Assembly: GCF_051903065.1 (NCBI RefSeq)
Contig: NZ_CP178440.1
From: Escherichia coli
GTDB taxonomy: Bacteria; Pseudomonadota; Gammaproteobacteria; Enterobacterales; Enterobacteriaceae
Reading direction: 5' to 3' (one strand)
Length of the DNA stretch: 64,000 nt
Shown: piece by piece, positions 25,831 through 63,933 of the stretch
Layout: each line of letters begins with the position of its first letter
Position numbering within the stretch: the stretch's first letter is position 1
Translations under genes and position numbers: made by a program
The notes under the pieces: model-generated
The model's input: the letters and a program-made list of their open reading frames with translations, nothing else
Told to the model about the DNA's origin: nothing
Database searches by the model: none

Positions 25831-25858
25831 AAAGCCCCGAAAAAATTTTCGGGGCTTT
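25831..25858. terminator. Rho-independent terminator hairpin aagccccgaaaa / ttttcggggctt
   Basis: Perfect 12-bp stem directly after the 24999-25820 gene stop. Confidence 0.6.
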
Positions 25859-45606: not shown

Positions 45607-46966
45607 GCCTCTTTTTATTCTTTGTGCCGCCTTACTGACGGTGACGCCTGCAGCGTCAGCGGATGTGAACAGCGACATGAATCAGTTCTTTAACAAGCTG
45701 GGCTTCGCCTCCAATACCACACAGTCGGGCGTCTGGCAGGGGCAGGCTGCCGGCTATGCTTACGGCGGCTCCCTGTATGCCCGTACTCAGGTCAAAAATG
45801 TTCAGCTGATTTCCATGACGCTGCCGGATATCAATGCCGGATGTGGCGGCATCGATGCCTACCTCGGTTCGTTCAGTTTTATTAATGGCGAGCAGCTGCA
45901 GCGTTTTGTTAAGCAGATTATGAGCAATGCTGCCGGTTACTTTTTTGACCTTGCCCTGCAGACAACGGTGCCGGAAATCAAAACCGCAAAAGACTTCCTG
46001 CAGAAAATGGCAAGCGACATTAACAGTATGAACCTCAGTTCCTGCCAGGCGGCGCAGGGGATTATTGGCGGGCTTTTCCCCCGGACGCAGGTGTCCCAGC
46101 AAAAAGTCTGTCAGGACATTGCCGGTGAGAGCAATATTTTTGCTGACTGGGCGGCTTCCCGGCAGGGATGTACCGTTGGCGGGAAATCTGACAGTGTCAG
46201 GGATAAAGCCAGCGACAAGGATAAGGAGCGGGTGACCAAAAACATCAACATCATGTGGAATGCGCTTTCCAAAAACAGAATGTTTGACGGCAACAAAGAG
46301 CTGAAAGAGTTTGTGATGACGCTGACCGGCTCACTGGTGTTTGGTCCCAACGGCGAAATCACACCGCTGTCAGCCAGAACCACTGACCGCTCAATTATCC
46401 GGGCCATGATGGAAGGCGGCACAGCAAAAATTTATCACTGCAACGATTCTGATAAATGCCTGAAAGTGGTGGCAGACACACCGGTGACCATCAGCCGGGA
46501 TAATGCACTGAAGTCTCAGATTACTAAACTTCTGGCCAGCATTCAGAACAAGGCGGTCAGTGACACGCCTCTGGATGACAAGGAAAAAGGCTTTATTTCC
46601 AGTACCACCATCCCCGTCTTCAAATACCTGGTTGACCCGCAGATGCTCGGAGTTTCCAACAGCATGATTTACCAGCTGACGGACTATATCGGTTACGACA
46701 TCCTGCTGCAGTACATTCAGGAGCTGATACAGCAGGCCCGGGCGATGGTGGCCACAGGAAATTATGACGAAGCAGTTATCGAACATATTAACGACAACAT
46801 GAATGATGCCACCCGGCAGATTGCGGCGTTTCAGTCACAGGTGCAGGTACAGCAGGATGCGCTGCTGGTTGTCGATCGTCAGATGAGCTACATGCGTCAG
46901 CAGCTTTCCGCCCGCATGCTCAGTCGTTACCAGAACAACTATCACTTCGGAGGGAGCACGCTGTGA
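45593..46966 (+). CDS. traH: TraH
   Basis: 457-aa ORF with signal peptide. Confidence 0.9.
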   Translation: MLRIKPLFILCAALLTVTPAASADVNSDMNQFFNKLGFASNTTQSGVWQGQAAGYAYGGSLYARTQVKNVQLISMTLPDINAGCGGIDAYLGSFSFINGEQLQRFVKQIMSNAAGYFFDLALQTTVPEIKTAKDFLQKMASDINSMNLSSCQAAQGIIGGLFPRTQVSQQKVCQDIAGESNIFADWAASRQGCTVGGKSDSVRDKASDKDKERVTKNINIMWNALSKNRMFDGNKELKEFVMTLTGSLVFGPNGEITPLSARTTDRSIIRAMMEGGTAKIYHCNDSDKCLKVVADTPVTISRDNALKSQITKLLASIQNKAVSDTPLDDKEKGFISSTTIPVFKYLVDPQMLGVSNSMIYQLTDYIGYDILLQYIQELIQQARAMVATGNYDEAVIEHINDNMNDATRQIAAFQSQVQVQQDALLVVDRQMSYMRQQLSARMLSRYQNNYHFGGSTL

Positions 46967-49779
46967 ATGAAGTTTATGTGATTGCCGGTGGTGAGTGGTT
47001 GCGGAATAACCTGAACGCCATTGCCGCCTTTATGGGAACCAGGACGTGGGATTCCATTGAAAAAATTGCGCTCACATTGTCTGTTCTCGCGGTGGCCGTG
47101 ATGTGGGTACAGCGGCACAACGTGATGGATTTGCTGGGCTGGGTGGCCGTGTTTGTGCTTATCAGCCTGCTGGTTAATGTCCGCACATCGGTGCAGATTA
47201 TTGATAACAGTGACCTGGTCAAAGTTCACCGGGTGGATAATGTACCGGTCGGACTGGCGATGCCACTTTCACTGACGACCCGTATCGGGCATGCGATGGT
47301 GGCAGGTTATGAGATGGTGTTCGCTCAGCCTGACAGCGCCACCTACAGCAAGACAGGCATGCTGTTCGGGGCGAACCTGATTGTGAAAAGCACCGATTTC
47401 CTGTCCCGGAATCCGGAAATCATCAATCTGTTTCAGGACTACGTCCAGAACTGCGTGCTGGGTGATATTTACCTGAACCACAAATACACGCTGGAAGACC
47501 TGATGGCCTCCGGTGACCCCTACACGCTGATTTTTTCCCGGCCCAGCCCGCTACGGGGCGTTTATGACAGCAATAATAATTTCATAACCTGTAAAGATGC
47601 GTCGGTCACGCTGAAAGACAGGCTGAATCTCGATACAAAGACGGGAGGCAAGACCTGGCATTATTATGTGCAGCAGATATTTGGCGGCAGGCCGGACCCT
47701 GACCTGTTATTCAGACAACTGGTGAGTGACAGTTACAGTTATTTCTACGGCTCCAGCCAGTCTGCCAGCCAGATTATGCGCCAGAACGTCACCATGAATG
47801 CCCTGAAAGAGGGTATCACCAGTAATGCGGCCCGTAACGGTGATACCGCCAGCCTGGTCAGTCTGGCCACGACTTCGTCGATGGAGAAACAGCGTCTGGC
47901 ACATGTCTCCATTGGTCATGTGCTGATGCGAAACCTGCCGATGGTGCAGACCATTCTGGTGGGCATTACCATTGGTATCTTCCCGCTCCTGGTACTGGCG
48001 GCTGTCTTCAACAGACTGACGCTGTCTGTTCTGAGAGGCTATGTGTTTGCTCTGATGTGGTTCCAGACCTGGCCGTTGCTGTATGCCATTCTGAACAGTG
48101 CCATGACATTCTATGCAAAGCAGAATGGTGCACCGGTCGTGCTCTCTGAACTCTCTCAGATACAGCTGAAATACTCCGACCTGGCGTCCACTGCCGGATA
48201 TATATCTGTCATGATACCCCCGTTGTCATGGATGATGGTAAAAGGCCTTGGCGCAGGTTTTTCCAGCGTGTACAGCCATTTCGCTTCCTCTGCTATCAGT
48301 CCAACTGCCAGTGCGGCAGGTAGTGTGGTTGACGGTAATTACTCCTACGGCAACATGCAGACGGAAAACGTGAACGGCTTCAGCTGGAGCACCAACAGCA
48401 CCACGTCGTTTGGTCAGATGATGTACCAGACCGGCAGTGGCGCAACCGCCACACAGACCCGTGACGGTAATATGGTGATGGATGCAAGCGGAGCTATGTC
48501 CCGGTTACCGGTCGGCATCAATGCAACGCGTCAGATTGCGGCAGCACAACAGGAAATGTCCCGGGAAGCATCGAACAGAGCAGAAAGTGCCCTGCATGGG
48601 TTCAGCAGCAGTATTGCCAGTGCCTGGAACACGCTCAGTCAGTTTGGTTCTAACCGGGGGAGCAGTGATTCTGTCACAGGTGGTGCTGACAGCACCATGA
48701 GCGCACAGGACTCCATGATGGCCAGCCGTATGCGCAGTGCAGTGGAAAGCTATGCGAAGGCGCATAATATCAGTAATGAGCAGGCGACAAGAGAACTGGC
48801 ATCGAGAAGTACAAATGCGTCGCTTGGCCTTTACGGTGATGCTTATGCTAAAGGGCATTTAGGCATAAGTGTATTGGGTAACGGTGGAGGGGTTGGTCTC
48901 CAGGCCGGAGCTAAGGCAAGCATTGATGGCAGTGATCTTGACTCACATGAAGCCAGTAGTGGTTCACGGGCCAGCCATGATGCTCGTCATGATATCGATG
49001 CCAGAGCTACACAAGACTTTAAAGAGGCCAGCGATTACTTTACCAGCCGCAAAGTCAGTGAATCCGGCAGCCATACTGACAATAATGCCGATTCCCGCGT
49101 GGACCAGCTGTCTGCAGCCCTGAACTCAGCGAAACAGAGTTACGACCAGTACACGACGAATATGACCCGCAGCCATGAATATGCTGAAATGGCATCCCGT
49201 ACTGAAAGCATGAGTGGGCAGATGAGTGAAGATCTGTCGCAACAGTTTGCACAGTATGTGATGAAACACGCACCGCAGGATGCCGAAGCTATTCTGACAA
49301 ACACCAGTTCACCGGAGATTGCAGAACGCCGCCGGGCGATGGCGTGGTCTTTTGTGCAGGAACAGGTGCAGCCTGGTGTTGATAATGCCTGGCGTGAATC
49401 CCGTGGCGATATTGGTAAAGGAATGGAGAGCGTACCTTCGGGTGGTGGCAGCCAGGATATTATTGCTGACCATCAGGGGCATCAGGCCATTATTGATCAA
49501 AGAACGCAGGACAGTAATATCCGGAATGATGTAAAACATCAGGTTGATAATATGGTCACAGAATATAAAGGGAATATAGGTGATACTCAGAACAGTATCC
49601 GTGGCGAGGAAAATATTGTAAGAGGGCAGTATTCTGAACTACAAAATCATCATAAAACAGAAGCATTAACTCAGAATAATAAATATAATGAAGAAAAGCT
49701 GGCTCAGGAAAGAATACCTGGTGCTGATAGTCCGAAAGAGCTTTTAGAGAAAGCAAAGAGTTACCAGCATAAAGAATAA
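46963..49779 (+). CDS. traG: TraG (mating-pair stabilisation / entry-exclusion determinant)
   Basis: 938-aa ORF, N-terminal membrane domain. Confidence 0.9.
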   Translation: MNEVYVIAGGEWLRNNLNAIAAFMGTRTWDSIEKIALTLSVLAVAVMWVQRHNVMDLLGWVAVFVLISLLVNVRTSVQIIDNSDLVKVHRVDNVPVGLAMPLSLTTRIGHAMVAGYEMVFAQPDSATYSKTGMLFGANLIVKSTDFLSRNPEIINLFQDYVQNCVLGDIYLNHKYTLEDLMASGDPYTLIFSRPSPLRGVYDSNNNFITCKDASVTLKDRLNLDTKTGGKTWHYYVQQIFGGRPDPDLLFRQLVSDSYSYFYGSSQSASQIMRQNVTMNALKEGITSNAARNGDTASLVSLATTSSMEKQRLAHVSIGHVLMRNLPMVQTILVGITIGIFPLLVLAAVFNRLTLSVLRGYVFALMWFQTWPLLYAILNSAMTFYAKQNGAPVVLSELSQIQLKYSDLASTAGYISVMIPPLSWMMVKGLGAGFSSVYSHFASSAISPTASAAGSVVDGNYSYGNMQTENVNGFSWSTNSTTSFGQMMYQTGSGATATQTRDGNMVMDASGAMSRLPVGINATRQIAAAQQEMSREASNRAESALHGFSSSIASAWNTLSQFGSNRGSSDSVTGGADSTMSAQDSMMASRMRSAVESYAKAHNISNEQATRELASRSTNASLGLYGDAYAKGHLGISVLGNGGGVGLQAGAKASIDGSDLDSHEASSGSRASHDARHDIDARATQDFKEASDYFTSRKVSESGSHTDNNADSRVDQLSAALNSAKQSYDQYTTNMTRSHEYAEMASRTESMSGQMSEDLSQQFAQYVMKHAPQDAEAILTNTSSPEIAERRRAMAWSFVQEQVQPGVDNAWRESRGDIGKGMESVPSGGGSQDIIADHQGHQAIIDQRTQDSNIRNDVKHQVDNMVTEYKGNIGDTQNSIRGEENIVRGQYSELQNHHKTEALTQNNKYNEEKLAQERIPGADSPKELLEKAKSYQHKE

Positions 49780-49811
49780 TCGTAACATGTTGGGTAGGGT
49801 ATGGAGAGGCC

Positions 49812-50333
49812 ATGATTACACAACAAATTATCAGTAGTGAGTTGGAAGTTTTAAAGAAACATATTGACTCAGGAGATATTAGAATTCCGTCACTATGGCA
49901 GGGATTAAAACCCGGGTTTATAATCATGGGATGGATGATTTTTTGTCCCTTACTAATGTCATTTCTAATAACACAAAAGACAAGTGAAACACTCACTGCT
50001 GTGTTAGCCGGAGGATGGCTTGGACTTATTATTCTGTTTATTGTGGCAAGGATTAGAATGTTATATTTCTCTCTGCCGGAAGAATTCCTAAAGACATCAT
50101 CCGTAATGAGGATTATATCATCAAAACTGAAAGTGTATTTCATTGTGTATATGGGAATTATATTTTTATGGTCTTTTTTAGGTGGAGGGATTATATACGG
50201 TTTTGGTGCAATTTTAGTGACGGTTATTATGGCGTTCTTGATTCAATTAGATATCGGTAGATATCAATTTGTTGGTGTTATTGATGCAATCAATAGTTAC
50301 GTCAAAAACAAGAAGTTATCAAGAGTAAAATAA
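49812..50333 (+). CDS. traS: TraS entry exclusion inner-membrane protein
   Basis: Hydrophobic 173-aa ORF, AT-rich, between traG and traT. Confidence 0.75.
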   Translation: MITQQIISSELEVLKKHIDSGDIRIPSLWQGLKPGFIIMGWMIFCPLLMSFLITQKTSETLTAVLAGGWLGLIILFIVARIRMLYFSLPEEFLKTSSVMRIISSKLKVYFIVYMGIIFLWSFLGGGIIYGFGAILVTVIMAFLIQLDIGRYQFVGVIDAINSYVKNKKLSRVK

Positions 50334-50354
50334 AAGATATTAGAGAGTAAATAT

Positions 50355-51089
50355 ATGATGAAAACAAAAAAACTAATGATGGTTGCACTGGTCAGTTCCA
50401 CTCTGGTCCTTTCAGGGTGTGGTGCGATGAGCACAGCAATCAAGAAGCGTAACCTTGAGGTGAAGACTCAGATGAGTGAGACCATCTGGCTTGAACCCGC
50501 CAGCGAACGCACGGTATTTCTGCAGATCAAAAACACGTCTGATAAAGACATGAGTGGGCTGCAGGGCAAAATTGCTGATGCTGTGAAAGCAAAAGGATAT
50601 CAGGTGGTGACTTCTCCGGATAAAGCCTACTACTGGATTCAGGCGAATGTGCTGAAGGCCGATAAGATGGATCTGCGGGAATCTCAGGGATGGCTGAACC
50701 GTGGTTATGAAGGCGCAGCAGTTGGTGCAGCGTTAGGTGCCGGTATCACCGGATATAATTCCAGTTCTGCCGGTGCCACACTCGGTGTGGGCCTTGCTGC
50801 CGGTCTGGTGGGTATGGCTGCAGATGCGATGGTGGAAGATGTGAACTATACCATGATCACGGATGTGCAGATTGCAGAGCGTACTAAGGCAACGGTGACA
50901 ACGGATAATGTTGCCGCCCTGCGTCAGGGCACATCAGGTGCGAAAATTCAGACCAGTACTGAAACAGGTAACCAGCATAAATACCAGACCCGTGTGGTCT
51001 CAAATGCGAACAAGGTTAACCTGAAATTTGAAGAGGCGAAGCCTGTTCTCGAAGACCAGCTGGCCAAATCAATCGCAAATATTCTCTGA
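50355..51089 (+). CDS. traT: TraT surface exclusion / serum-resistance lipoprotein
   Basis: Lipobox LSGC; near-identical to F TraT as recalled. Confidence 0.95.
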
Positions 51090-51291
51090 ACCTCGTCAGG
51101 AGGCTGGTCTGACCGGCCTCCTTGCTGACGCCTCGCGTTGCTCGTTGTCCAACCCCGGGACGTAACAAAATAAATTTTGTCACTTCCCGACGTTTCCGAA
51201 ATAAATATGAAAACACTGAGCGGTTGTGCAAATTCTTTGTGCGACCGTGAAGTGTTGCCGGCGAAGCCGGGATCTTCCGGAGAAAGTCATT

Positions 51292-52029
51292 ATGACATCA
51301 GACAATATCGCTGAATATGTTGGTGAGAATAATCAATTTACTGAGAAGCCTGTAACTGAATACCCCCCGGTGATACAGAATAATACAGTGACCACTAAAG
51401 ACTATCTGTACAGCAATAATATTGATACTGACCTTTTAGTGGTTATCGGAGGGCTTATTGTTATATTGTTTCTCATGATGCTTATCATGTACTTTATTAA
51501 TTCTCTCAGGCATAAGGAATTAACTGAAATACTGACAAAAATATCTTTTCCTGAAAAATCCGGGAGCAATTCGCTTAAACCGGAAGCGGTCAGCTGTAAT
51601 TTGTTGTCCCTGTGTGTGCTGGCACCGGTATTCTTTACACCCAGAAAGCTGGCTGAAGTTTCCAGGGAGATCATCGTGGCGAGTGCGCAGGAAATTGCAT
51701 GGACGCCGGGGAGCAGTCGTATTGATGGCCACCAGGCGGAGAATATCACCTGGGCGATTTCATCGCAGTCTCCTGCCGATAAGTATGATCTCATCAATAA
51801 AACGTCCCGTGTTTCTCCTGACAGTGGCCGTTTTTATGAACCGGACACAGTTCTGGATCACCGTGAGCGGGTACGCCTTTTTGTTCAGATCCAGTTTCCG
51901 CATGGGAGTGACTGGTCTGAAGTATTGCGCCTGACTGACATTGTTACAGAGAAGGTCTCTTCCGGCAGGGCTGCAGGCGGGTATCACCACCGGCATACAG
52001 GGTACACCTGGTCTGTTTCTGTGAATTAA
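51292..52029 (+). CDS. Hypothetical protein (about 245 aa, one predicted transmembrane helix) between traT and traD
   Basis: ORF from ATG 51292; not part of the core F tra gene set as I recall. Confidence 0.5.
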
Positions 52030-52079
52030 CCCCACATCATCCTTTTCTGCCCTGTTCCAGATTTTCCCGGAGTTTCATC

Positions 52080-54341
52080 ATGAGTTTTAACGCAAAGGAT
52101 ATGACCCAGGGCGGTCAGATTGCGTCCATGCGTATCCGCATGTTCAGCCAGATCGCCAATATCATGCTTTACTGCCTGTTTATTTTTTTCTGGATACTCG
52201 TTGGTCTGGTTTTATGGGTAAAAATAAGCTGGCAGACGTTTGTGAACGGCTGTATTTACTGGTGGTGTACCACGCTGGAAGGCATGCGGGATTTAATCAA
52301 GTCCCAGCCGGTCTATGAGATCCAGTATTACGGCAAAACCTTCCGGATGAATGCTGCTCAGGTACTGCATGATAAATATATGATCTGGTGCGGAGAGCAG
52401 CTATGGTCCGCATTCGTTCTGGCCACAGTTGTGGCACTGGTTATTTGCCTGATTACCTTCTTTGTTGTCTCCTGGATTCTGGGGCGTCAGGGTAAACAAC
52501 AGAGCGAAAATGAAGTCACAGGTGGTCGTCAGCTGACAGACAATCCGAAAGACGTTGCCCGGATGCTGAAAAAAGACGGCAAGGACTCCGATATCCGGAT
52601 TGGCGACCTGCCGATTATCCGGGATTCTGAAATCCAGAACTTCTGTCTGCACGGCACGGTCGGGGCCGGTAAGTCGGAAGTTATCCGTCGTCTGGCCAAC
52701 TACGCCCGTCAGCGCGGTGATATGGTGGTGATTTATGACCGTTCAGGGGAATTTGTTAAAAGTTACTATGATCCCTCCATCGATAAGATCCTGAATCCGC
52801 TGGATGCCCGCTGTGCCGCCTGGGATTTATGGAAGGAGTGTCTGACACAGCCGGATTTTGATAATACGGCAAATACCCTGATCCCGATGGGCACAAAAGA
52901 GGACCCGTTCTGGCAGGGTTCAGGACGTACCATTTTTGCGGAAGCGGCGTACCTGATGCGTAATGACCCCAACCGCAGCTACAGCAAACTGGTGGACACA
53001 CTGCTTTCCATCAAAATCGAAAAACTGCGTACCTTCCTGCGTAATTCACCGGCGGCCAACCTGGTGGAAGAGAAAATTGAGAAAACGGCGATTTCCATCC
53101 GTGCTGTGCTGACCAACTACGTGAAAGCCATCCGTTACCTGCAGGGGATTGAGCATAACGGTGAGTCTTTTACCATCCGTGACTGGATGCGGGGTGTCCG
53201 GGAAGATCAGAAAAACGGCTGGCTGTTTATCTCGTCGAATGCCGACACCCATGCCTCCCTGAAGCCGGTGATCTCCATGTGGCTGTCCATTGCCATTCGT
53301 GGTCTGCTGGCAATGGGAGAAAACCGTAACCGTCGTGTGTGGTTTTTCTGTGATGAGCTACCCACGTTACACAAACTGCCGGACCTGGTGGAGATCCTGC
53401 CGGAAGCCCGTAAGTTCGGTGGCTGTTATGTGTTTGGTATCCAGTCCTATGCCCAGCTGGAAGATATCTACGGTGAGAAAGCGGCTGCCACGCTGTTTGA
53501 CGTCATGAACACCCGTGCCTTTTTCCGTTCTCCCAGCCATAAGATTGCAGAGTTCGCTGCCGGTGAGATTGGTGAGAAAGAGCACCTGAAAGCCAGCGAG
53601 CAGTACTCCTACGGTGCTGATCCGGTACGTGACGGGGTATCGACCGGTAAGGATATGGAGCGCCAGACGCTGGTCAGTTATTCCGACATTCAGTCTCTGC
53701 CGGATTTGACCTGTTATGTCACCCTGCCCGGACCGTATCCGGCAGTAAAACTCTCACTGAAATATCAGGCACGTCCGAAGGTTGCCCCTGAGTTTATTCC
53801 GCGTGACATCAACCCGGAAATGGAGAACCGCCTGAGCGCCGTACTTGCCGCAAGGGAAGCAGAAGGTCGTCAGATGGCCAGCCTCTTCGAACCGGATGTG
53901 CCGGAAGTTGTTTCCGGAGAAGACGTGACTCAGGCTGAACAGCCGCAACAGCCGCAACAGCCGCAACAGCCGCAACAGCCGCAACAGCCGCAACAGCCGC
54001 AACAGCCGCAACAGCCGCAACAGCCGCAACAGCCGCAACAGCCGCAACAGCCGCAACAGCCGGTGTCTCCCGCCATCAACGATAAGAAGTCAGATTCAGG
54101 TGTGAATGTTCCGGCAGGGGGGATCGAGCAGGAGCTGAAAATGAAACCGGAAGAAGAGATGGAACAGCAACTGCCACCCGGGATCAGTGAATCCGGTGAA
54201 GTGGTGGATATGGCCGCTTATGAGGCATGGCAACAGGAAAATCATCCGGACATCCAGCAGCAGATGCAGCGTCGTGAAGAGGTGAACATTAATGTGCACC
54301 GGGAGCGCGGGGAGGATGTTGAGCCGGGAGATGATTTCTGA
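52080..54341 (+). CDS. traD: TraD type IV coupling protein
   Basis: 753-aa ORF, Walker [10 protein letters not shown]-terminal QPQ repeat and acidic tail. Confidence 0.95.
53940..54062 (+). repeat. Tandem 9-bp repeat cagccgcaa, about 13.7 copies, in-frame within traD (QPQ repeats)
   Basis: Counted directly in sequence. Confidence 0.95.
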
Positions 54342-57300
54342 TGATGAGTATCGCGCAGGTCAGATCGGCCGGAAGTGCCGGTAACTATTATACCGACAAG
54401 GATAATTACTATGTGCTGGGCAGCATGGGAGAACGCTGGGCCGGCAGGGGGGCTGAACAGCTGGGACTGCAGGGCAGTGTCGATAAGGATGTTTTTACCC
54501 GTCTTCTGGAGGGAAGGCTGCCGGACGGAGCGGATCTAAGCCGCATGCAGGATGGCAGTAACAGGCATCGTCCCGGCTACGACCTGACCTTCTCCGCCCC
54601 CAAAAGTGTCTCCATGATGGCCATGTTAGGTGGCGATAAGCGCCTGATTGATGCACATAACCAGGCCGTGGACTTTGCTGTTCGTCAGGTGGAGGCGCTG
54701 GCCTCCACACGGGTGATGACGGACGGACAGTCAGAAACGGTGCTGACCGGTAATCTGGTGATGGCACTGTTTAACCACGACACTAGTCGCGATCAGGAAC
54801 CACAGTTACACACGCATGCGGTGGTGGCTAATGTCACGCAGCATAACGGTGAGTGGAAGACACTGAGCAGTGACAAAGTGGGGAAAACGGGGTTCATTGA
54901 GAATGTGTACGCTAATCAGATTGCCTTTGGCAGGCTCTATCGGGAAAAACTGAAAGAGCAGGTTGAGGCGCTGGGCTATGAAACCGAAGTGGTGGGTAAG
55001 CACGGTATGTGGGAGATGCCGGGCGTACCGGTGGAGGCCTTTTCCGGACGCTCACAGGCTATCCGAGAGGCCGTCGGGGAAGATGCCTCGCTAAAATCCC
55101 GGGATGTGGCGGCACTGGATACGCGAAAATCCAAACAGCACGTCGATCCTGAAGTCAGAATGGCTGAATGGATGCAGACGCTGAAGGAAACCGGGTTCGA
55201 CATCCGGGCATATCGTGACGCGGCGGATCAGCGTGCGGAGACCCGCACGCAGGCGCCCGGGGCTGTTTCACAGGAGGGGCCGGATGTGCAGCAGGCGGTG
55301 ACACAGGCGATTGCCGGATTAAGTGAACGAAAAGTGCAGTTTACGTACACGGACGTGCTGGCCAGAACAGTCGGCATACTGCCGCCGGAAAATGGTGTGA
55401 TTGAACGGGCACGCGCCGGTATCGATGAGACCATCAGCCGTGAGCAACTCATCCCCCTTGACCGTGAGAAGGGGCTGTTCACGTCCGGGATTCATGTGCT
55501 CGATGAACTGTCAGTCCGGGCACTCAGTCGCGATATCATGAAACAGAACCGGGTGACCGTACATCCGGAGAAAAGTGTCCCCCGGACGGCCGGCTACAGT
55601 GATGCCGTCAGTGTTCTGGCACAGGACCGTCCGTCGCTGGCCATTGTGTCCGGGCAGGGCGGTGCAGCCGGGCAGCGTGAGCGGGTGGCTGAACTGGTCA
55701 TGATGGCCCGGGAGCAGGGGCGGGAGGTGCAGATTATCGCTGCTGACCGTCGCTCGCAGATGAACCTGAAGCAGGATGAACGGCTGTCCGGTGAGCTGAT
55801 AACCGGACGTCGTCAGCTGCCGGAAGGCATGGCCTTCACGCCGGGCAGTACTGTTATCGTTGACCAGGGCGAAAAACTCTCCCTGAAAGAGACGTTAACC
55901 CTGCTAGACGGTGCCGCACGTCATAACGTACAGGTCCTGATAACCGACAGCGGGCAGCGAACCGGTACAGGCAGTGCGCTGATGGCCATGAAGGATGCCG
56001 GGGTTAACATATATCGCTGGCAGGGCGGAGAGCAACGACCGGCAACCATCATCAGTGAACCGGACCGTAATGTCCGCTATGCCCGGCTGGCCGGGGACTT
56101 TGCGGCCAGCGTGAAAGCCGGAGAAGAGAGCGTGGCACAGGTCAGCGGGGTACGGGAACAGGCCATACTGACACAGGCCATTCGCAGTGAGCTGAAAACA
56201 CAGGGCGTGCTCGGACACCCGGAGGTAACCATGACCGCCCTGTCACCGGTCTGGCTGGACAGCCGGAGCCGTTATCTGCGGGATATGTACCGCCCGGGAA
56301 TGGTGATGGAGCAGTGGAACCCGGAGACACGCAGTCATGACCGCTATGTTATCGACCGGGTGACGGCGCAGAGTCACAGCCTGACCCTGCGGGATGTGCA
56401 GGGCGAAACGCAGGTGGTGCGTATTTCCTCCCTGGACAGCAGCTGGTCGCTGTTCCGGCCGGAAAAAATGCCGGTGGCAGACGGCGAGCGACTGAGGGTG
56501 ACCGGGAAAATTCCCGGACTCCGAGTCTCCGGCGGTGACCGCCTGCAGGTGGCATCCGTCAGTGAAGATGTGATGACGGTTGTTGTGCCGGGGCGGGCTG
56601 AACCGGCCTCCCTGCCTGTGAGCGATTCACCGTTCACGGCACTGAAGCTGGAGAATGGCTGGGTGGAAACGCCCGGGCATTCCGTCAGCGACAGTGCGAA
56701 GGTTTTTGCCTCCGTCACACAGATGGCAATGGACAAGGCCACCCTGAACGGTCTGGCCCGCAGCGGTCGTGATGTCCGGCTGTATTCCTCACTGGATGAA
56801 ACCCGTACTGCGGAAAAACTTGCCCGCCATCCGTCCTTTACGGTGGTTTCTGAGCAGATAAAGGCGCGGGCCGGTGAGACATCGCTGGAAACGGCTATCA
56901 GTCATCAGAAGTCCGCACTTAACACGCCGGCACAGCAGGCCATTCATCTTGCCCTTCCGGTGGTGGAAAGTAAAAACCTGGCCTTCAGCCATGTGGACCT
57001 GCTGACAGAGGCAAAGTCGTTTGCTGCAGAAGGAACCAGTTTTGCTGACCTGGGGCGGGAAATCGATGCGCAGATAAAACGGGGCGATTTACTGCATGTG
57101 GATGTGGCAAAAGGTTATGGCACAGACCTGCTGGTTTCCCGTGCGTCGTATGAGGCTGAAAAAAGCATTCTTCGCCATATTCTCGAAGGTAAGGAGGCGG
57201 TCACGCCGCTGATGGAGAGAGTACCTGGCGAACTCATGGAGAAACTGACATCAGGACAGCGCGCCGCCACCCGCATGATACTGGAAACGCCCGACCGTTT

Positions 57301-59611
57301 CACGGTGGTGCAGGGCTATGCCGGTGTGGGTAAGACCACACAGTTCCGGGCGGTGATGTCAGCCGTGAACATGCTGCCGGAGAGTGAGCGTCCCCGTGTC
57401 GTTGGGCTGGGCCCCACGCACCGTGCGGTCGGGGAGATGCGCAGCGCCGGCGTGGATGCACAGACACTGGCGTCCTTTCTGCATGACACGCAACTGCAGC
57501 AGCGCAGCGGAGAAACGCCGGATTTCAGCAACACGCTGTTCCTGCTCGATGAGAGCTCAATGGTGGGCAATACCGACATGGCACGGGCATACGCCCTGAT
57601 TGCGGCCGGTGGTGGTCGTGCCGTGGCCAGCGGTGACACGGACCAGCTGCAGGCCATCGCGCCCGGTCAGCCTTTCCGTCTCCAGCAGACGCGCAGTGCT
57701 GCCGATGTGGCCATCATGAAGGAGATTGTGCGTCAGACGCCGGAACTGCGGGAGGCGGTATACAGCCTGATTAACCGGGATGTGGAAAGGGCACTGTCCG
57801 GGCTTGAGAGTGTGAAACCGTCTCAGGTGCCACGTCAGGAGGGCGCATGGGCACCGGAGCACTCCGTGACGGAGTTCAGTCACAGCCAGGAAGCAAAACT
57901 GGCAGAAGCGCAGCAGAAGGCGATGCTGAAAGGCGAGGCTTTCCCGGATGTCCCCATGACACTGTATGAAGCCATTGTCCGCGACTATACCGGCAGGACA
58001 CCGGAAGCACGGGAGCAGACGCTGATTGTCACGCACCTGAATGAGGACCGGCGCGTGCTGAACAGCATGATTCATGATGCACGGGAAAAGGCCGGTGAGC
58101 TGGGAAAAGAGCAGGTCATGGTGCCTGTCCTGAACACAGCGAATATACGTGACGGAGAACTGCGTCGTCTTTCCACCTGGGAGACACATCGGGACGCACT
58201 TGCCCTGGTGGATAATGTGTATCACCGGATTGCCGGTATCAGCAGGGATGACGGGCTGATAACCCTGCAGGATGCGGAAGGTAACACGCGGCTGATTTCG
58301 CCCCGGGAGGCGGTGGCTGAAGGTGTCACACTGTACACCCCGGACAAAATCCGGGTGGGGACCGGTGACCGGATGCGCTTCACGAAGAGTGACCGGGAGC
58401 GTGGTTATGTGGCCAACAGCGTCTGGACGGTGACAGCGGTATCCGGTGACAGTGTCACGCTGTCGGACGGACAGCAGACCCGGGTGATTCGCCCCGCCCA
58501 GGAGCAGGCAGAGCAACATATTGACCTGGCCTATGCCATCACCGCCCACGGTGCGCAGGGTGCGAGTGAAACCTTTGCCATTGCGCTTGAAGGCACGGAA
58601 GGTAACCGGAAACTGATGGCCGGCTTTGAGTCAGCCTACGTGGCCCTGTCGCGTATGAAGCAGCATGTGCAGGTGTACACCGATAACCGTCAGGGCTGGA
58701 CGGATGCCATTAACAATGCCGTACAGAAAGGAACTGCCCACGATGTGCTGGAGCCGAAACCGGACCGGGAGGTCATGAATGCAGAGCGGCTGTTCAGTAC
58801 GGCGCGGGAGCTGCGGGACGTGGCGGCAGGGCGTGCCGTTCTTCGTCAGGCGGGGCTTGCCGGGGGAGACAGTCCTGCACGGTTTATTGCACCGGGGCGT
58901 AAATATCCACAGCCGTATGTGGCACTGCCGGCGTTTGACCGTAACGGCAAATCAGCCGGTATCTGGCTGAACCCGCTGACCTCGGATGATGGAAACGGGC
59001 TGCGGGGATTCAGTGGTGAAGGCCGTGTGAAAGGCAGCGGGGATGCGCAGTTCGTGGCCCTGCAGGGCAGCCGTAACGGAGAAAGCCTGCTGGCTGATAA
59101 TATGCAGGATGGTGTCCGGATTGCCCGTGATAATCCTGACAGTGGTGTGGTGGTAAGAATCGCCGGTGAAGGCCGTCCGTGGAATCCCGGTGCCATCACC
59201 GGTGGCCGCGTGTGGGGGGATATCCCGGACAACAGCGTCCAGCCGGGAGCCGGAAATGGCGAGCCGGTCACGGCAGAGGTACTGGCACAGCGGCAGGCTG
59301 AAGAGGCCATCCGCCGTGAAACGGAACGCCGTGCGGATGAAATTGTCCGTAAAATGGCAGAGAACAAACCTGACCTGCCGGATGGCAAAACAGAGCAGGC
59401 TGTCAGGGAGATTGCCGGGCAGGTGCGTGAGCGGGCTGCCATAACTGAACGGGAAACTGCGCTGCCGGAGAGTGTGCTGCGTGAACCACAACGGGAGCGG
59501 GAAGCGGTCCGGGAGGTTGCCCGGGAAAATCTGCTGCAGGAGCGTCTGCAGCAGATGGAGCGGGATATGGTCCGTGACCTGCAGAAAGAGAAAACCCTGG
59601 GCGGAGACTGA
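54341..59611 (+). CDS. traI: TraI relaxase-helicase
   Basis: 1756-aa ORF; start overlaps traD stop. Confidence 0.95.
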   Translation: MMSIAQVRSAGSAGNYYTDKDNYYVLGSMGERWAGRGAEQLGLQGSVDKDVFTRLLEGRLPDGADLSRMQDGSNRHRPGYDLTFSAPKSVSMMAMLGGDKRLIDAHNQAVDFAVRQVEALASTRVMTDGQSETVLTGNLVMALFNHDTSRDQEPQLHTHAVVANVTQHNGEWKTLSSDKVGKTGFIENVYANQIAFGRLYREKLKEQVEALGYETEVVGKHGMWEMPGVPVEAFSGRSQAIREAVGEDASLKSRDVAALDTRKSKQHVDPEVRMAEWMQTLKETGFDIRAYRDAADQRAETRTQAPGAVSQEGPDVQQAVTQAIAGLSERKVQFTYTDVLARTVGILPPENGVIERARAGIDETISREQLIPLDREKGLFTSGIHVLDELSVRALSRDIMKQNRVTVHPEKSVPRTAGYSDAVSVLAQDRPSLAIVSGQGGAAGQRERVAELVMMAREQGREVQIIAADRRSQMNLKQDERLSGELITGRRQLPEGMAFTPGSTVIVDQGEKLSLKETLTLLDGAARHNVQVLITDSGQRTGTGSALMAMKDAGVNIYRWQGGEQRPATIISEPDRNVRYARLAGDFAASVKAGEESVAQVSGVREQAILTQAIRSELKTQGVLGHPEVTMTALSPVWLDSRSRYLRDMYRPGMVMEQWNPETRSHDRYVIDRVTAQSHSLTLRDVQGETQVVRISSLDSSWSLFRPEKMPVADGERLRVTGKIPGLRVSGGDRLQVASVSEDVMTVVVPGRAEPASLPVSDSPFTALKLENGWVETPGHSVSDSAKVFASVTQMAMDKATLNGLARSGRDVRLYSSLDETRTAEKLARHPSFTVVSEQIKARAGETSLETAISHQKSALNTPAQQAIHLALPVVESKNLAFSHVDLLTEAKSFAAEGTSFADLGREIDAQIKRGDLLHVDVAKGYGTDLLVSRASYEAEKSILRHILEGKEAVTPLMERVPGELMEKLTSGQRAATRMILETPDRFTVVQGYAGVGKTTQFRAVMSAVNMLPESERPRVVGLGPTHRAVGEMRSAGVDAQTLASFLHDTQLQQRSGETPDFSNTLFLLDESSMVGNTDMARAYALIAAGGGRAVASGDTDQLQAIAPGQPFRLQQTRSAADVAIMKEIVRQTPELREAVYSLINRDVERALSGLESVKPSQVPRQEGAWAPEHSVTEFSHSQEAKLAEAQQKAMLKGEAFPDVPMTLYEAIVRDYTGRTPEAREQTLIVTHLNEDRRVLNSMIHDAREKAGELGKEQVMVPVLNTANIRDGELRRLSTWETHRDALALVDNVYHRIAGISRDDGLITLQDAEGNTRLISPREAVAEGVTLYTPDKIRVGTGDRMRFTKSDRERGYVANSVWTVTAVSGDSVTLSDGQQTRVIRPAQEQAEQHIDLAYAITAHGAQGASETFAIALEGTEGNRKLMAGFESAYVALSRMKQHVQVYTDNRQGWTDAINNAVQKGTAHDVLEPKPDREVMNAERLFSTARELRDVAAGRAVLRQAGLAGGDSPARFIAPGRKYPQPYVALPAFDRNGKSAGIWLNPLTSDDGNGLRGFSGEGRVKGSGDAQFVALQGSRNGESLLADNMQDGVRIARDNPDSGVVVRIAGEGRPWNPGAITGGRVWGDIPDNSVQPGAGNGEPVTAEVLAQRQAEEAIRRETERRADEIVRKMAENKPDLPDGKTEQAVREIAGQVRERAAITERETALPESVLREPQREREAVREVARENLLQERLQQMERDMVRDLQKEKTLGGD

Positions 59612-59630
59612 TACAGGAAGGCAAACGCTG

Positions 59631-60377
59631 ATGACAACGGATAACACGAACACGACACGTAACGATTCACTGGCTGCCCGGACCGATACCTGGTTGCAGT
59701 CGTTGCTGGTCTGGTCACCCGGACAGCGGGATATCATCAAAACGGTGGCACTGGTGCTGATGGTACTGGACCACATCAATCTGATATTCCAGCTGAAGCA
59801 GGAATGGATGTTTCTGGCCGGGCGTGGAGCCTTTCCGCTGTTTGCCCTGGTGTGGGGGCTGAATCTGTCCCGTCATGCGCATATCCGGCAACCGGCCATT
59901 AACCGGCTGTGGGGATGGGGGATTATTGCCCAGTTCGCATATTATCTGGCAGGCTTTCCCTGGTATGAGGGGAATATCCTGTTTGCCTTTGCAGTGGCGG
60001 CACAGGTGCTGACGTGGTGTGAAACGCGCAGTGGGTGGCGTACAGCAGCGGCCATTCTTCTGATGGCGCTGTGGGGGCCTTTGTCCGGCACCAGTTACGG
60101 CATTGCCGGGCTGCTGATGCTGGCAGTCAGCCACCGGCTGTACCGGGCGGAAGACAGAGCGGAACGTCTGGCGCTGGTCGCCTGCCTGCTGGCTGTTATT
60201 CCGGCGCTTAACCTTGCCACCAGTGATGCAGCGGCGGTGGCCGGTCTTGTGATGACGGTGCTGACCGTTGGTCTGGTGTCGTGTGCAGGAAAATCATTAC
60301 CCCGTTTCTGGCCCGGGGATTTTTTCCCGGTATTCTACGCCTGTCATCTGGCTGTGCTGGGCGTTCTGGCGCTGTGA
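59631..60377 (+). CDS. traX: TraX pilin N-acetylase (membrane protein)
   Basis: 248 aa from ATG 59631; ORF-track version over-extended. Confidence 0.85.
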   Translation: MTTDNTNTTRNDSLAARTDTWLQSLLVWSPGQRDIIKTVALVLMVLDHINLIFQLKQEWMFLAGRGAFPLFALVWGLNLSRHAHIRQPAINRLWGWGIIAQFAYYLAGFPWYEGNILFAFAVAAQVLTWCETRSGWRTAAAILLMALWGPLSGTSYGIAGLLMLAVSHRLYRAEDRAERLALVACLLAVIPALNLATSDAAAVAGLVMTVLTVGLVSCAGKSLPRFWPGDFFPVFYACHLAVLGVLAL

Positions 60378-60431
60378 CGGGTGTGGTATCTTTGACCGCA
60401 AGAGGATGATTCGTCAGAGGCAGAACACAGC

Positions 60432-60992
60432 ATGACAGAGCAGAAGCGACCGGTACTGACACTGAAGCGGAAAACGGAAGGGGAGACGCCTGTCCGCAGG
60501 CGGAAAACCATCATCAATGTCACCACGCCACCAAAGTGGAAGGTGAAAAAGCAGAAGCTGGCCGAGAAAGCAGCCCGGGAAGCAGAGCTGGCGGCAAAAA
60601 AAGCGCAGGCCAGACAGGCACTGTCCATTTATCTGAATCTGCCCACGCTGGATGAGGCCGTGAATACCCTGAAACCCTGGTGGCCGGGATTGTTTGACGG
60701 TGACACGCCCCGGCTTCTGGCCTGCGGTATCCGGGACGTGTTACTGGAAGACGTGGCGCAGCGGAATATCCCGCTCTCGCATAAAAAACTGCGCAGGGCG
60801 CTGAAGGCCATCACCCGTTCAGAAAGCTATCTGTGTGCCATGAAAGCCGGTGCCTGCCGGTATGACACGGAAGGGTATGTGACGGAGCATATTTCTCAGG
60901 AGGAGGAAGCGTATGCGGCAGCGCGTCTGGATAAAATCCGCCGCCAGAACCGGATAAAGGCAGAACTTCAGGCCGTGCTTGATGAGAAATAA
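60432..60992 (+). CDS. finO: FinO fertility inhibition RNA chaperone
   Basis: 186-aa basic ORF after traX. Confidence 0.9.
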
Positions 60993-61123
60993 AAAAAAGC
61001 CTCCATCAGAGAGGAGGCAGGGAAATAAGGCTTAAAAGGAAATAACTTCCGTACCCGAAAGGAAGCCAATTCAGTAGATTATTTAACACCATAATACTGA
61101 CGGGTTAAAGAGGAGTGATAAAG

Positions 61124-61324
61124 ATGAATGGATTCAGAAACAGTTCACGGAACGGTCAGGTCTGGCGCTGGCAGCGTGCCGGAAGCCGTGCCGTCAGCCT
61201 GGAGGTCAGGGGATTCCGGAAGGAGGCCGCTGAAGCGTGGCTCCTGGCTGCCCGTGTTGCTCCCCGTACAGACTGGCAGCAGTTTGCACGGCAGAGAGCC
61301 GAACGCTGTCAGCGACGGAGATAA
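61124..61324 (+). CDS. Hypothetical small basic protein
   Basis: ORF with RBS aagaggag. Confidence 0.35.
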   Translation: MNGFRNSSRNGQVWRWQRAGSRAVSLEVRGFRKEAAEAWLLAARVAPRTDWQQFARQRAERCQRRR

Positions 61325-61709
61325 TGAAAAAAAACGGCAAAAAAAAGACTTCCCCTGAGCAAAGGAGGCCAAAAATCATTCATAGCGTATTACTGACATT
61401 GAATGAATGCTCTGTACATCAACCCTGTGAAGCTACCACCGGTTAATGCCGGGAGGTTGCGGGAAGAAAGATAATACACAGTCATTACGTGGTTAATATC
61501 TGTCAGAATGTTTTTTGTGACCATAAACTGTCAGATGGATAAAAAAGACCGTCATGTGACGGTCAGTGTTGTCCTGTCAGGGACAAATGCATTCAGTAAG
61601 GAGAGCAAAATAATAACATCACGTTGCCCGGCTGTTAATATCAGGCGATGTTAAGTGTTATTTATGACTCTTTTATCTGGTTGTGAAGTCTGTTAATCAG
61701 GAAGAGAAA

Positions 61710-62309
61710 ATGGCGACCGGAAAATCAGAGAAGCAACAGGTGATTGCCTTTATCGATTACGAGAACTGCAGTAACCTGACAGAAATTTCCTTAAATATAT
61801 ATACGGAGTTAATTATATTCGCGGGTGCGAAACAGAATAATGTGGCACTGCCAGTAAACGCTTTCCCTGAAGCAGTAAAAATCACACTCCGGCATGTCAG
61901 TGAAGTCTCCCGGAACAATGTTGATTTTCATCTGGTGCTGGAGCTGGGGCAGTGTGTATGCCACTACGGGCCGGAGAAGGAATACCATATTGTTTCCGCT
62001 GACAAGGGATATGACGGTATTGTCCGGACACTGCAGGCGCGCGGGATTCGCTGCCGTCGCGTCTCCCCGGATAAGGCGTCATCAGTAAAGATGGCTGCAC
62101 CCGACATGGATATCGTTATCCGGTGGGCAAACAAAATTCAACAGGCAGCGCGGGAGGTTCGTAATATGCCGGTAACAGAAAAGACATTTAATAATTATTT
62201 AAAATCACAGATGCGCGGTGAATGGCGTGATGTCCTGACCAGAGGTATCCGGGATGAACTGGTCCGTCGCGGGGTAATGAAAATTCAGGGGAATAAAATC
62301 ATCTGGTAA
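61710..62309 (+). CDS. Hypothetical protein with NYN/PIN-like nuclease motif pattern (VIAFIDYENC ... IVSADKGYDGIV)
   Basis: Motif pattern in translation; start chosen at ATG with RBS ggaagag. Confidence 0.5.
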   Translation: MATGKSEKQQVIAFIDYENCSNLTEISLNIYTELIIFAGAKQNNVALPVNAFPEAVKITLRHVSEVSRNNVDFHLVLELGQCVCHYGPEKEYHIVSADKGYDGIVRTLQARGIRCRRVSPDKASSVKMAAPDMDIVIRWANKIQQAAREVRNMPVTEKTFNNYLKSQMRGEWRDVLTRGIRDELVRRGVMKIQGNKIIW

Positions 62310-62370
62310 GACTGCCAGAATAAAATGATATTTATTTTATTTATAAAAACAGAAAGGTCGAAAATCAATA

Positions 62371-62703
62371 ATGGCATTTATTTCCATGACAAGACAGAAA
62401 GCGCCGTACAGATATGCAAGCAAGACCCGGTTATCGATAAGACGAACAGACTCAGGCTCTGCCGGGTGTTATGTGACGGTTGCCGTTCGGGGGAAGCAGG
62501 AATTTATTATTGCTGAACTTGATTCAGAAATCCGGAAAATCAGGCTGAAACTGACGGACTCCTATGAAGAAGGGGTAAGGCTGTCTTCGGGCACGTTTAC
62601 GCTTCCGGCCAGATTCTGCCGGGAAATACTGCCGGACGACGTCAGGAGTATCACCATTATTCTGGAAAAAAGCGACGATGAGTGGTGGTACGGGAGTTAC
62701 TGA
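62371..62703 (+). CDS. Hypothetical protein (110 aa)
   Basis: ORF only. Confidence 0.4.
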   Translation: MAFISMTRQKAPYRYASKTRLSIRRTDSGSAGCYVTVAVRGKQEFIIAELDSEIRKIRLKLTDSYEEGVRLSSGTFTLPARFCREILPDDVRSITIILEKSDDEWWYGSY

Positions 62704-62952
62704 TATGTGGCAGAACTCCGGACACTGACGCCTTCGCGTTGCTCAGTTGTCCAACCCCGGAAACGGGAAAAAGCAAGTTTTCCCCGCTCCCGGCGTTTCT
62801 GCAATAAAAAGCAGGGGCATGGAGGTCGTCGTAACCAGACAGGAATGTGGTATTATCGCGGCGGGTGTCTGAGCCTTTCTGGTTCAGGCAAGACGCAGGT
62901 ACCAGAAATGCGAAGACCCCACTCGTTAATCCATTAACTCGTGAGGTCTGCA

Positions 62953-63012
62953 TGAAGTACTTAGCACTACTGATTGTAGCCTCTTCTTTGCAGAGAGGTC
63001 AAAGTTTATGAC
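62953..63012 (+). CDS. Leader reading frame (19 aa) translationally coupled to the hok-family toxin (mok/pndC-like)
   Basis: ATG 62953, stop overlaps toxin start as ATGA. Confidence 0.4.
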
Positions 63013-63158
63013 GAAATATGCCCTTATCGGGTTGCTCGCCGTGTGTGCCACGGTATTGTGTTTTTCACTGATATTCAGGGAACGGTTATGTGAACTGAAT
63101 ATTCACAGGGGAAATACAGTGGTGCAGGTAACTCTGGCCTACGAAGCACGGAAGTAAG
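63009..63158 (+). CDS. Hok-family toxin, SrnB/PndA type (49 aa)
   Basis: Hand translation MTKYALIGLLAVCATVLCFSLIFRERLCELNIHRGNTVVQVTLAYEARK; not in ORF track (under 60 aa). Confidence 0.75.
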
Positions 63159-63440
63159 CTGCCGGGCGGGGACGGAAGTCCCCGCTTTCCGGAAGTGTGA
63201 GGTATTTCAGGGGCAGACACCCGACATGCCAGAAACAGCCGGTCCCGCCCGGGGCCGGCATCCAGGTTAAGGCATTTCCTGTTTTTCAGTCATTTCATCA
63301 TCAAAATCACATTAAACGGTCGTAATCAGACATGATTTGTGCGCCAACACAGATCATCATCACAACTTTCAAGTCGCTGATTTCAAAAAACTGTAGTATC
63401 CTCTGCGAAACGATCCCTGTTTGAGAATTGAGGAGGCGAG

Positions 63441-63689
63441 ATGTCGCAGACAGAAAATGCAGTGACTTCCTCATCAGGTACAAAGCGAGCATACCGAAAA
63501 GGTAATCCTCTGACGCTTGCAGAACGTCAGCAGGCATCTCTGGCAAGAAAACGTGCCACACATAAAGAACTCAGAGTGTTCATTCCTGCTGCGTTAAAAG
63601 CGCAATTACAGGAGATGTGTGACGCTGAAGGTGTTACTCAGGCTGAGATGATTGCTGAACTGATAAAGCAGAAGAGTGCTTTCAGCTAA
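63441..63689 (+). CDS. copB: CopB (RepA2) transcriptional repressor of the FII replicon
   Basis: 82-aa [27 protein letters not shown]... resembles R1/R100 CopB. Confidence 0.85.
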
Positions 63690-63933
63690 CTAAAATGTAG
63701 CGACATCACATTCTTGCCTGTTTGTGGTGTGCGTGATAGATTGCTGATCGTTTAAGGAATTTTGTGGCTGGCCACGCCATAAGGTGGCAGGGAACTGGTT
63801 CTGATGTGGATGTACAGGAGCCAGAAAAGCGAAAACCCCGATAATCTTCTTTAACTTTGGCGAGTCAGAAAGATTACCGGGGCTAACAAGAAACTGCATA
63901 GAAGCTGTTGCTCTATGCGGGGAGTATAGTTAT

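Follow-up and report, generated by a model that had tools for sequence, protein, structure and literature searches.

The stretch analysed here is a 64,000-nt window of the Escherichia coli contig NZ_CP178440.1 (assembly GCF_051903065.1), which belongs to an F-like (IncFII) plasmid with the listed tra and rep genes all on the plus strand. Two look-alike non-coding stretches are present in it, one (copy 1, type 1) in the gap between traT and traD and the other (copy 2, type 2) in the space that separates the last finO-distal gene from the hok/sok-repA2 edge of the replicon. Analysis of both copies revealed a discrete, structurally constrained and strand-specific element of the transferred strand (T-strand), related to primosome assembly sites (PAS). 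On the strand transferred in conjugation, each copy is probably a phiX174-type PAS (n'-pas), a kind of site also known as a PriA-dependent single-strand initiation signal (ssi).

Two copies of one hairpin element

The first-pass annotation of the sequence had described a homologous element of about 90 bp at these two places. The best local alignment of the two intergenic regions joined 51125-51205 to 62725-62808 with a score of 72, compared to 16.6 ± 2.4 (maximum 33) for 2000 dinucleotide shuffles (z = 23). The homology was thus upheld, although the conserved unit proved shorter, with 72 nt (51125-51196) and 75 nt (62725-62799); these limits were set by comparison with other plasmids, which revealed sharp ends. 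The similar A/T-rich stretches that were said to follow could not be retained, since they are not conserved in other plasmids, and the similarity between type 1 and type 2 stops at CGTTTC. Within the cores, 59 of the 75 aligned positions were identical, with three single-base gaps, and the blocks CTGACGCC, TCGCGTTGCTC and GTTGTCCAACCCCGG were the same in both copies except for two single-base indels. A covariance model (CM R1) combining structure and sequence was built from ten type-2 plasmid copies and therefore holds plasmid sequences only. When the 64-kb window was searched with it, only the two copies were recovered (copy 2, E = 4e-30; copy 1, E = 2e-14), and no third copy could be found in the 64 kb by pattern or covariance-model searches. 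The next match, at 26420-26503 (E = 0.01), was an unrelated hairpin inside a coding gene. Open reading frames (ORFs) overlap both copies on both strands; a coding reading was rejected because single-base indels between the copies and within the hairpin disrupt every frame.

On the plus strand, the element consists of a small-hairpin arm of 19-21 nt, the spacer GTTGTCC, a hairpin of 44-45 nt with 20 pairs, and then TC. In the long hairpin of copy 1, the fourth pair counted from the base is a G.G mismatch, and the apex consists of A/T only. In copy 2, the minus strand forms three G.U/G.T pairs, for which the plus strand would have A.C mismatches. Conservation is seen at the base of the long stem (AAC-C-CCGG ... 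CCGG-C-GTT) and at its A/T apex, and the mid-stem sequence is wholly different between the types and among variants, with the pairing still kept; some variants (L008, L039 and L143) are perfect 20-bp palindromes. The small hairpin is formed as ACGC-loop-GCGT with an outer CTG/CAG in IncFII plasmids and as a continuous GACGCC/GGCGTC stem in IncFII(K) plasmids, the 3' arm GGCGTC being common to both solutions.

Pair statistics were obtained from a structure-aware alignment of 18 sequences fitted to the model from the ten type-2 copies. Standard pairs on the minus strand occupied 92.8% of the cells, and compensatory changes on both sides could be observed at 9 of the 20 pairs of the long hairpin. 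The covariation score was 0.369, compared to 0.176 ± 0.017 for shuffled alignments and at most 0.169 when the partners were slid; it exceeded all 500 shuffles and every slid control, although the aligned sequences are related, so that the shuffle controls overstate the significance. Folding of both copies yielded minus-strand hairpins with z-scores of -3.7 (copy 1) and -5.7 (copy 2). The earlier proposal of a conserved, duplicated and structured non-coding element was therefore confirmed by alignment, by the folds and by other plasmids.

The strand on which the pairing is kept

The minus strand was identified as the T-strand because it carries the nick sequence and because of the gene layout: the leading region lies at lower coordinates than the nick site, while traM, traJ and traY lie at higher coordinates on the plus strand. 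The minus strand is also opposite to all tra and rep mRNAs. All 15 plasmid variants folded better on the minus strand, with mean folds of -35.3 (minus) vs -26.5 (plus) kcal/mol using RNA parameters and -20.0 vs -15.2 kcal/mol using DNA parameters. Wobble pairs were counted with a scoring that treats G.T and A.C alike, among 41 distinct variants from plasmids and metagenomes. Transition mismatches that are A.C on the plus strand and G.U/G.T wobbles on the minus strand filled 76 cells, and the reverse was seen in 8; 34 variants leaned towards minus-strand pairing, and not one leaned the other way. The reverse cells came mostly from rare variants, and the others affected either the loop-closing pair or, in pSLT and L020, a stem base that has decayed; each of the abundant lineages carried two or three minus-strand wobbles. 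The asymmetry of 76 vs 8 indicates that pairing is kept on the minus strand and lapses on the plus strand. Together with the folds, it points to strand-specific selection, a computational result that describes the strand and says nothing of activity. We infer that the active strand of copy 1 is the minus (transferred) strand.

The strand bias bears directly on a plus-strand RNA role, in which the element would act as a terminator, attenuator or 3'-stabilising hairpin that ends or protects the traT and distal tra transcripts and insulates the replicon from read-through. Both copies follow the stop of a plus-strand gene at places where transcription units are expected to end, and the TGA stop of a DUF2726 gene falls inside CTGACGCC in many plasmids. 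The copies of the window still fold on the plus strand (-18 to -21 kcal/mol), a short UUU follows the stem, and terminator activity after traT was reportedly observed by Jalajakumari and colleagues in 1987. However, no U-tract is present (the stem is followed by CGUUUCY in the plus-strand direction and by GGACAAC in that of the minus strand), and a terminator scan was empty at both copies on both strands. The wobble bias runs the wrong way for such an RNA, with 76 A.C cells tolerated vs 8 G.U, and in IncFII(K) plasmids only 20-30 nt separate the element from the start of the plus-strand gene that follows it. This role would also leave the likeness to phage and ColE1 primosome sites on the opposite strand unexplained, and a separate GC-rich hairpin already follows traT. 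We therefore consider a plus-strand terminator or attenuator, as put forward in the first-pass annotation, to be unlikely: the tail CGUUUCY is not a U-tract, and the hairpin is kept on the strand opposite to the tra/rep mRNAs. The separate hairpin, AGGAGGCTGG-TCTGA-CCGGCCTCCT at 51098-51122, stands directly after the traT stop and precedes copy 1. It is more likely than the element to be the traT terminator, though a good U-tract is missing there too.

The pairing on the minus strand, including its G.U pairs, could also be expected if the element were the structured part of a minus-strand antisense RNA that regulates, for instance, traD, hok or the nuclease gene downstream. A weak promoter-like TTGCAC-N16-CATATT could be read from the sequence right of copy 1 on the minus strand, and other antisense RNAs such as AS-traI are known in tra. 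Against this, no promoter is conserved among the differing right flanks, and no promoter or terminator consensus was found at the element; neither hairpin is followed by a U-tract on the minus strand. An Rfam 15 scan of 49000-64000 (E ≤ 1) found sok, CopA and AS-traI and nothing at either copy. G.T wobbles fit single-stranded DNA equally, according to the folds with DNA parameters, and the nearest relatives of the element are signals on DNA strands that enter cells single-stranded. Such an antisense RNA is thus very unlikely, and the small RNA suggested earlier found no support in a family match, a conserved promoter or a terminator on either strand. IesR-1, an antisense RNA of pSLT, was considered and set aside as belonging to another locus (tlpA-mig5). 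In the same scan, the AS-traI family (antisense to traI) gave a full-score match at 57190-57266 on the minus strand, and a tract of 14 tandem CAGCCGCAA units in traD (53904-54083), coding for a poly-Gln-Pro tract, produced a spurious weak isrG match.

Occurrence among plasmids and gene setting

When each copy was used as a query, at least 5000 plasmid records were matched. The element occurs at the same two positions across F-like plasmids, one following traT and the other bordering the IncFII replicon on its left, and it ranges from E. coli IncFII plasmids to Klebsiella IncFII(K), Citrobacter and Salmonella pSLT. Copy 1 follows traT in E. coli, in Salmonella (including pSLT) and in classical F (NC_002483), where it could be found at 89582-89663 with 60.9 bits. 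The first-pass annotation had suggested looking for the element at both sites in other F-like plasmids; classical F has copy 1 only. The orientation of the element is constant relative to tra and repA, and both copies lay on the same strand in 10 of the 10 metagenome contigs that contained two. A scan of a genome collection returned only 8 loci, several of them from contaminated assemblies.

Thousands of records match 62725-62799 alone at 100% identity, with both flanks divergent. Left of copy 2, a DUF2726 gene, the 110-aa ORF, a thermonuclease region, dsbA or a pyocin immunity gene is present in various plasmids; on the right, copy 2 is followed by the hok/sok locus, by a phospholipase-D-family nuclease gene or immediately by the repA2 upstream region. 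This pattern would suit a recombination site or module joint, whether a site-specific target, a cruciform, an attC-like folded site or an anchor for homologous recombination at mosaic boundaries: a 75-nt core is 100% identical in thousands of plasmids and diverges abruptly on both sides, and different upstream genes precede it as they would precede a cassette end. The sequence GTCCAAC matches RYYYAAC, the inverse-core pattern of attC sites, which likewise work as a folded bottom strand. However, the 3' side GTTTCYR misfits GTTRRRY and does not pair with GTCC (only AAC/GTT pairs), no recombinase is linked to the element and no integrase lies beside either copy, and a cruciform would give no strand bias. 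The mosaic needs no dedicated recombination system, because a conserved functional island becomes a crossover anchor as a by-product. A recombination site is accordingly held to be highly improbable, and an integron attC in particular was rejected, its R'' box fitting, its R' side not, and no integrase being adjacent.

Several features next to the copies also vary between plasmids. The 245-aa ORF between copy 1 and traD is present in some plasmids (L019), while F, pSLT and plasmid L018 run straight into traD with differing spacers. About 80 nt right of copy 1 (51197-51275), which include a small hairpin CCGGCGAAGCCGG at 51259-51271, hardly vary between E. coli plasmids and pSLT, including those in which the hairpin of the element has diverged; this segment could be a candidate traD promoter or leader, or hold the minus-strand promoter TTGCAC-N16-CATATT. 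The hok/sok-type locus (62800-63290) is an insertion/deletion polymorphism between plasmids, and in many of them (L001, L003, L006, L009, L011 and L012) the element directly abuts the repA2 upstream sequence, which lies at about 63290-63350 here.

Table 1. Coordinates of the element copies, their parts and other features of the 64,000-nt window
Feature	Position	Strand	Details
Copy 1 (type 1), 72-nt core	51125-51196	-	traT-traD gap; CM R1 53.7 bits, E 2e-14; alignment with copy 2
Copy 1 small hairpin arm	51125-51143	-	minus strand = GAGCAACGCGAGGCGTCAG; ACGC/GCGT paired
Copy 1 spacer GTTGTCC (minus: GGACAAC)	51144-51150	-	invariant in all variants
Copy 1 long hairpin	51151-51194	-	20 pairs, loop TTTA; fold z -3.7
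Copy 2 (type 2), 75-nt core	62725-62799	-	CM R1 104.2 bits, E 4e-30
Copy 2 small hairpin arm	62725-62745	-	minus strand = TGAGCAACGCGAAGGCGTCAG; folds
Copy 2 spacer GTTGTCC (minus: GGACAAC)	62746-62752	-	invariant
Copy 2 long hairpin	62753-62797	-	20 pairs, loop CTTGC; minus -49 kcal/mol, z -5.7; plus z -3.0
oriT nick-site sequence GGGGTGT/GGTGCTTT	26710-26724	-	exact match; outside the element
traG	46963-49779	+	
traS	between traG and traT	+	
traT	50355-51089	+	
ORF, 245 aa	51292-52029	+	without Pfam match; sits between copy 1 and traD
traD	52080-54341	+	
traI	54341-59611	+	
traX	between traI and finO	+	
finO	60432-60992	+	
PIN-domain ORF	61683-62309	+	
110-aa ORF	62371-62703	+	
hok/sok-type locus	Rfam sok 62863-63020; Hok ORF 63008-63157	+	
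repA2	63441-63689	+	
CopA	63827-63916	-	Rfam

Elsewhere in the window, positions 25817-25872 form a perfect inverted repeat of 27 bp around a 2-nt centre (AAAGCCCCGAAAA/TTTTCGGGGCTTT), located near oriT between a DUF932-like ORF and a transglycosylase gene. The repeat resembles a bidirectional terminator and gave the top background scores with the hairpin model in the window and in F alike. Three 820-nt copies (1365-2184, 15592-16411 and 19922-20741) are 100% identical, two direct and one inverted, and are probably one insertion sequence present three times.

Relation to primosome assembly sites

The likeness to phiX174 was tested by the covariance model and by Smith-Waterman alignment; BLAST of copy 2 against phage genomes had given no match. 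In the whole phiX174 genome (NC_001422), the best match of CM R1 was 2301-2376 on the viral strand, in the F-G intergenic region, with 19.4 bits (E = 1e-4), and plain local alignment also ranked the F-G site as the best-scoring place in that genome. The viral strand reads ...ATAACGCCGAAGCGGTAAAAATTTTAATTTTTGCCGCTGAGGGGTTGACCAAGCGAAGCGCGGTAGG there, and the minus strand of copy 2 reads GAAACGCCGGGAGCGGGGAAAACTTGCTTTTTCCCGTTTCCGGGGTTGGACAACTGAGCAACGCGAAGGCGTCAG. Local alignment to the phiX174 site gave z = 6.1 for the minus strand of copy 2 (0 of 2000 shuffles) and z = 4.5 for that of copy 1, compared to 3.1 and 1.4 for the plus strands. The position T2305 of phiX174 is located within the primosome binding site, and the F-G intergenic region is important for the conversion of single- to double-stranded DNA (PMC3606162); the site itself is a hairpin recognised by PriA (reviews PMC5778457, PMC8246471). 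The top phage score, 30.1 bits (E = 4e-9), was received by the F-G intergenic region of phage WA14 (DQ079909 3835-3910; L149). ColE1 was matched at 1528-1610 with 25.6 bits (E = 1.5e-6), on the strand carrying CTGG/CTTA (1469-1462) and about 60 nt 5' of the nick sequence. Because it resembles the primosome sites of phiX174, WA14 and ColE1, the element is read as a signal in single-stranded DNA rather than in RNA.

The phage and plasmid copies share the stem base AAC-G.G-CC, with G.G at the fourth pair, and an apex made of an A-run and a T-run; the stem is followed by GGTTG(G)AC(A)A and a mini-hairpin of the GCGAAG type, and in both the wobble pairs are valid only on the entering strand. The conserved folded hairpin, the basis on which a PAS stays free of SSB, the single-stranded DNA-binding protein, is thus present in the plasmids, and the scores for phiX174 and ColE1 point to kinship in sequence and structure with experimentally defined PAS. 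The motif AAGCGG, common to n' sites, is present in L008, phiX174 and ColE1; it was dropped because it is not conserved among the plasmid variants.

By homology with such sites, the T-strand would be coated by SSB upon entering the recipient, with both hairpins staying folded. PriA would bind the hairpins and, with PriB, DnaT and DnaC, load DnaB, after which DnaG would lay primers and Pol III would make the complementary strand. The earlier idea of a protein-binding site may then be right in a loose sense, by way of putative PriA binding to a folded single strand. According to Arai & Kornberg 1981, as cited in PMC3606162, the phiX-type primosome runs 5'->3' on its template, opposite to chain growth; a complex at either copy could therefore track the incoming tra region, priming repeatedly. 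Copy 2 would enter right after the IncFII replicon and copy 1 in the middle of tra, and fragments begun at copy 2 would run back over repA2, repA1 and the origin, so that the replicon would become double-stranded at an early stage. Such a mechanism is consistent with the unvarying orientation of both copies and with the constant placement of copy 2 at the replicon's left edge. It is likewise in keeping with the fact that F-like plasmids are not known to encode a primase of their own. Both sites could in addition prime lagging-strand synthesis for forks moving leftwards; the IncFII fork runs rightward, and a vegetative role would be limited to leftward forks because the minus strand is the leading-strand template for the rightward one.

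Several points weigh against the assignment of the copies as PAS, the evidence for which is computational throughout. The 19.4 bits of phiX174 lie only slightly above the best unrelated hairpins (16.5-17.9 bits in searches of 64-99 kb), and because of this modest margin over background the link to phiX174 leans on position, strand and alignment z-scores. Known PAS are heterogeneous, and the ori-proximal PAS of ColE1 was not detected by CM R1. Going by the pBR322 map, the ColE1 match is presumably the second PAS (ssiB/rriB, by bom), and CTGG/CTTA is presumably the mapped MbeA nick, which would make the matched strand the transferred one. A mutation bias due to the single-strandedness of the T-strand may add to the wobble asymmetry. 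Furthermore, copy 2 was not found in the F plasmid by the covariance-model search and the mini-F region gave no match with CM R1; since classical F has copy 1 only, copy 2 is not indispensable. In the metagenome contig ERZ1031078.177 (L096, type 1), the long hairpin is precisely deleted.

Both the absence of copy 2 from classical F and the rare hairpin-deleted variants (L096 and L066) would be expected of a functionless relic, i.e., a duplication conserved by linkage only. This explanation is extremely unlikely, given the compensatory changes at 9 of 20 pairs, the keeping of a sharp-ended element while both flanks were replaced, and its presence from E. coli IncFII to Klebsiella IncFII(K), Citrobacter and Salmonella pSLT. 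In L066, a type-2 copy, the long hairpin is partly deleted. The deletions in L096 and L066 apparently occurred between the short repeats CCGGAAA / CCGAAA, and such variants could reflect palindrome instability or a dispensable site.

A PAS is a classical kind of element. Eleven ssi sites were reportedly cloned by Nomura and colleagues in 1991 from F, R6K, R100 and ColE2, and the assay on origin-less phage (M13deltaE101-type plaque or SS-to-RF) is said to have been applied there to F and R100; one or both copies may already be among these F/R100 ssi sites. The element is unmentioned in the annotation of the plasmid records compared and in recent accounts of F establishment, which treat only Frpo, and nothing on it was found in the Five-shades-of-F, TraT structure, exclusion and pEC958 literature. 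The conversion of the incoming F-type strand has been described almost wholly via the Frpo promoters of the leading region (PMC7690428, PMC9849209). A primer made at Frpo can be extended only towards the 5' end until the strand is recircularised. If the PAS assignment is correct, the priming that the replicon and tra lack would be provided by two PriA-type sites on the T-strand of at least 5000 resistance and virulence plasmids, plasmid establishment would depend on the replication-restart proteins of the recipient, and a very widespread 'intergenic' sequence would receive a concrete, testable function. Origins of complementary-strand synthesis in plasmids and microviruses would be linked, and the sharp mosaic boundary beside the IncFII replicon would be explained. 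If the sites have not been mapped before, they would represent a host-dependent PriA/DnaT step in F-type establishment that is testable and targetable. A wider proposal can be offered tentatively, as one that we would not expect to hold in full: F-like plasmids and microviruses may share a portable 75-nt PriA-loading module, whose two fixed T-strand positions (replicon edge and mid-tra) would drive duplexing of the last-entering third instead of or besides Frpo, and whose invariant core would serve as a crossover anchor and make the tra-replicon junction a hotspot of mosaicism.

Among known systems, the Frpo or leading-region ssi signals of F and ColIb-P9 resemble the element as folded T-strand signals at which RNA synthesis or priming begins in the recipient (PMC7690428, PMC9849209). 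The core motif (GGTTGGACAAC / GTTGTCCAACC) is absent from the published Frpo/ssi sequence table. Frpo, a leading-region signal of about 300 nt, presents RNA polymerase with a mimic of a -35/-10 duplex, whereas the element has 75 nt, is without promoter hexamers and lies in and after tra. The leading region of the window contains three direct copies of 300 nt (10145-10444, 13454-13753 and 23933-24232) with 97-99% identity, which belong to a non-coding module of about 600 nt (flanking families D4-D8 reach 10786/14097/24576); their position and number suggest candidate Frpo-type single-stranded DNA promoters.

The oric of phage G4 and the G-site of R1/R100 are likewise ssi signals made of hairpins on single-stranded DNA. 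A primase-only ssi of the G4 type was rejected for the element, since there was no similarity to G4 and no conserved CTG start could be read after the element; in the G4 genome (NC_001420), CM R1 found no match at 3884-4019 (L150), and its best score of 8.6 bits lay elsewhere. Phages WA14, FL68 and Lilledu, in contrast, share with the element the base AAACG, the G.G mismatch, GGTTGAACAA and GCGAAGCGCG, and their ACAAA-TTTTA-ATTTGT is very close to plasmid type 1. They differ in being G4-clade phages, whose type member G4 depends on primase alone at an origin of quite another kind. With phiX174-like primosome-site sequences in WA14, FL68 and Lilledu and the primase-only origin in G4, all of them classified in the species Gequatrovirus G4, an exchange of the complementary-strand origin within the clade is suggested.

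The ColE1 site agrees with the element in CCGGAG-CGG, the CTTG loop, CCGGGAGC, GACAA and GCGTCAG, while its upper stem is unlike in sequence and has more mismatches. It is a single copy by oriT, whereas the plasmid element has two copies, 24 and 36 kb from oriT. ColE1-type replicons have two PAS, the second further from ori (PMC3167613), and a ColE1 PAS is thought to prime the transferred strand (PMC4595007). ColE1 needs PAS for vegetative replication as well.

The phiX174 site differs from the plasmid element in a 2x2 internal loop where the plasmids have CCGG/CCGG, in the spacer (GACCAA in phiX174 vs GGACAAC), with the second hairpin closer in the phage, and in its strand being also the mRNA sense, while that of the plasmid is antisense; the overall identity is modest. 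Both have a long hairpin with the same base and apex, followed in phiX174 by GGGGTTG-AC-CAA and the GCGAAG mini-hairpin as in the element, and the phage site, like the proposed plasmid PAS, acts on a strand that enters the cell single-stranded.

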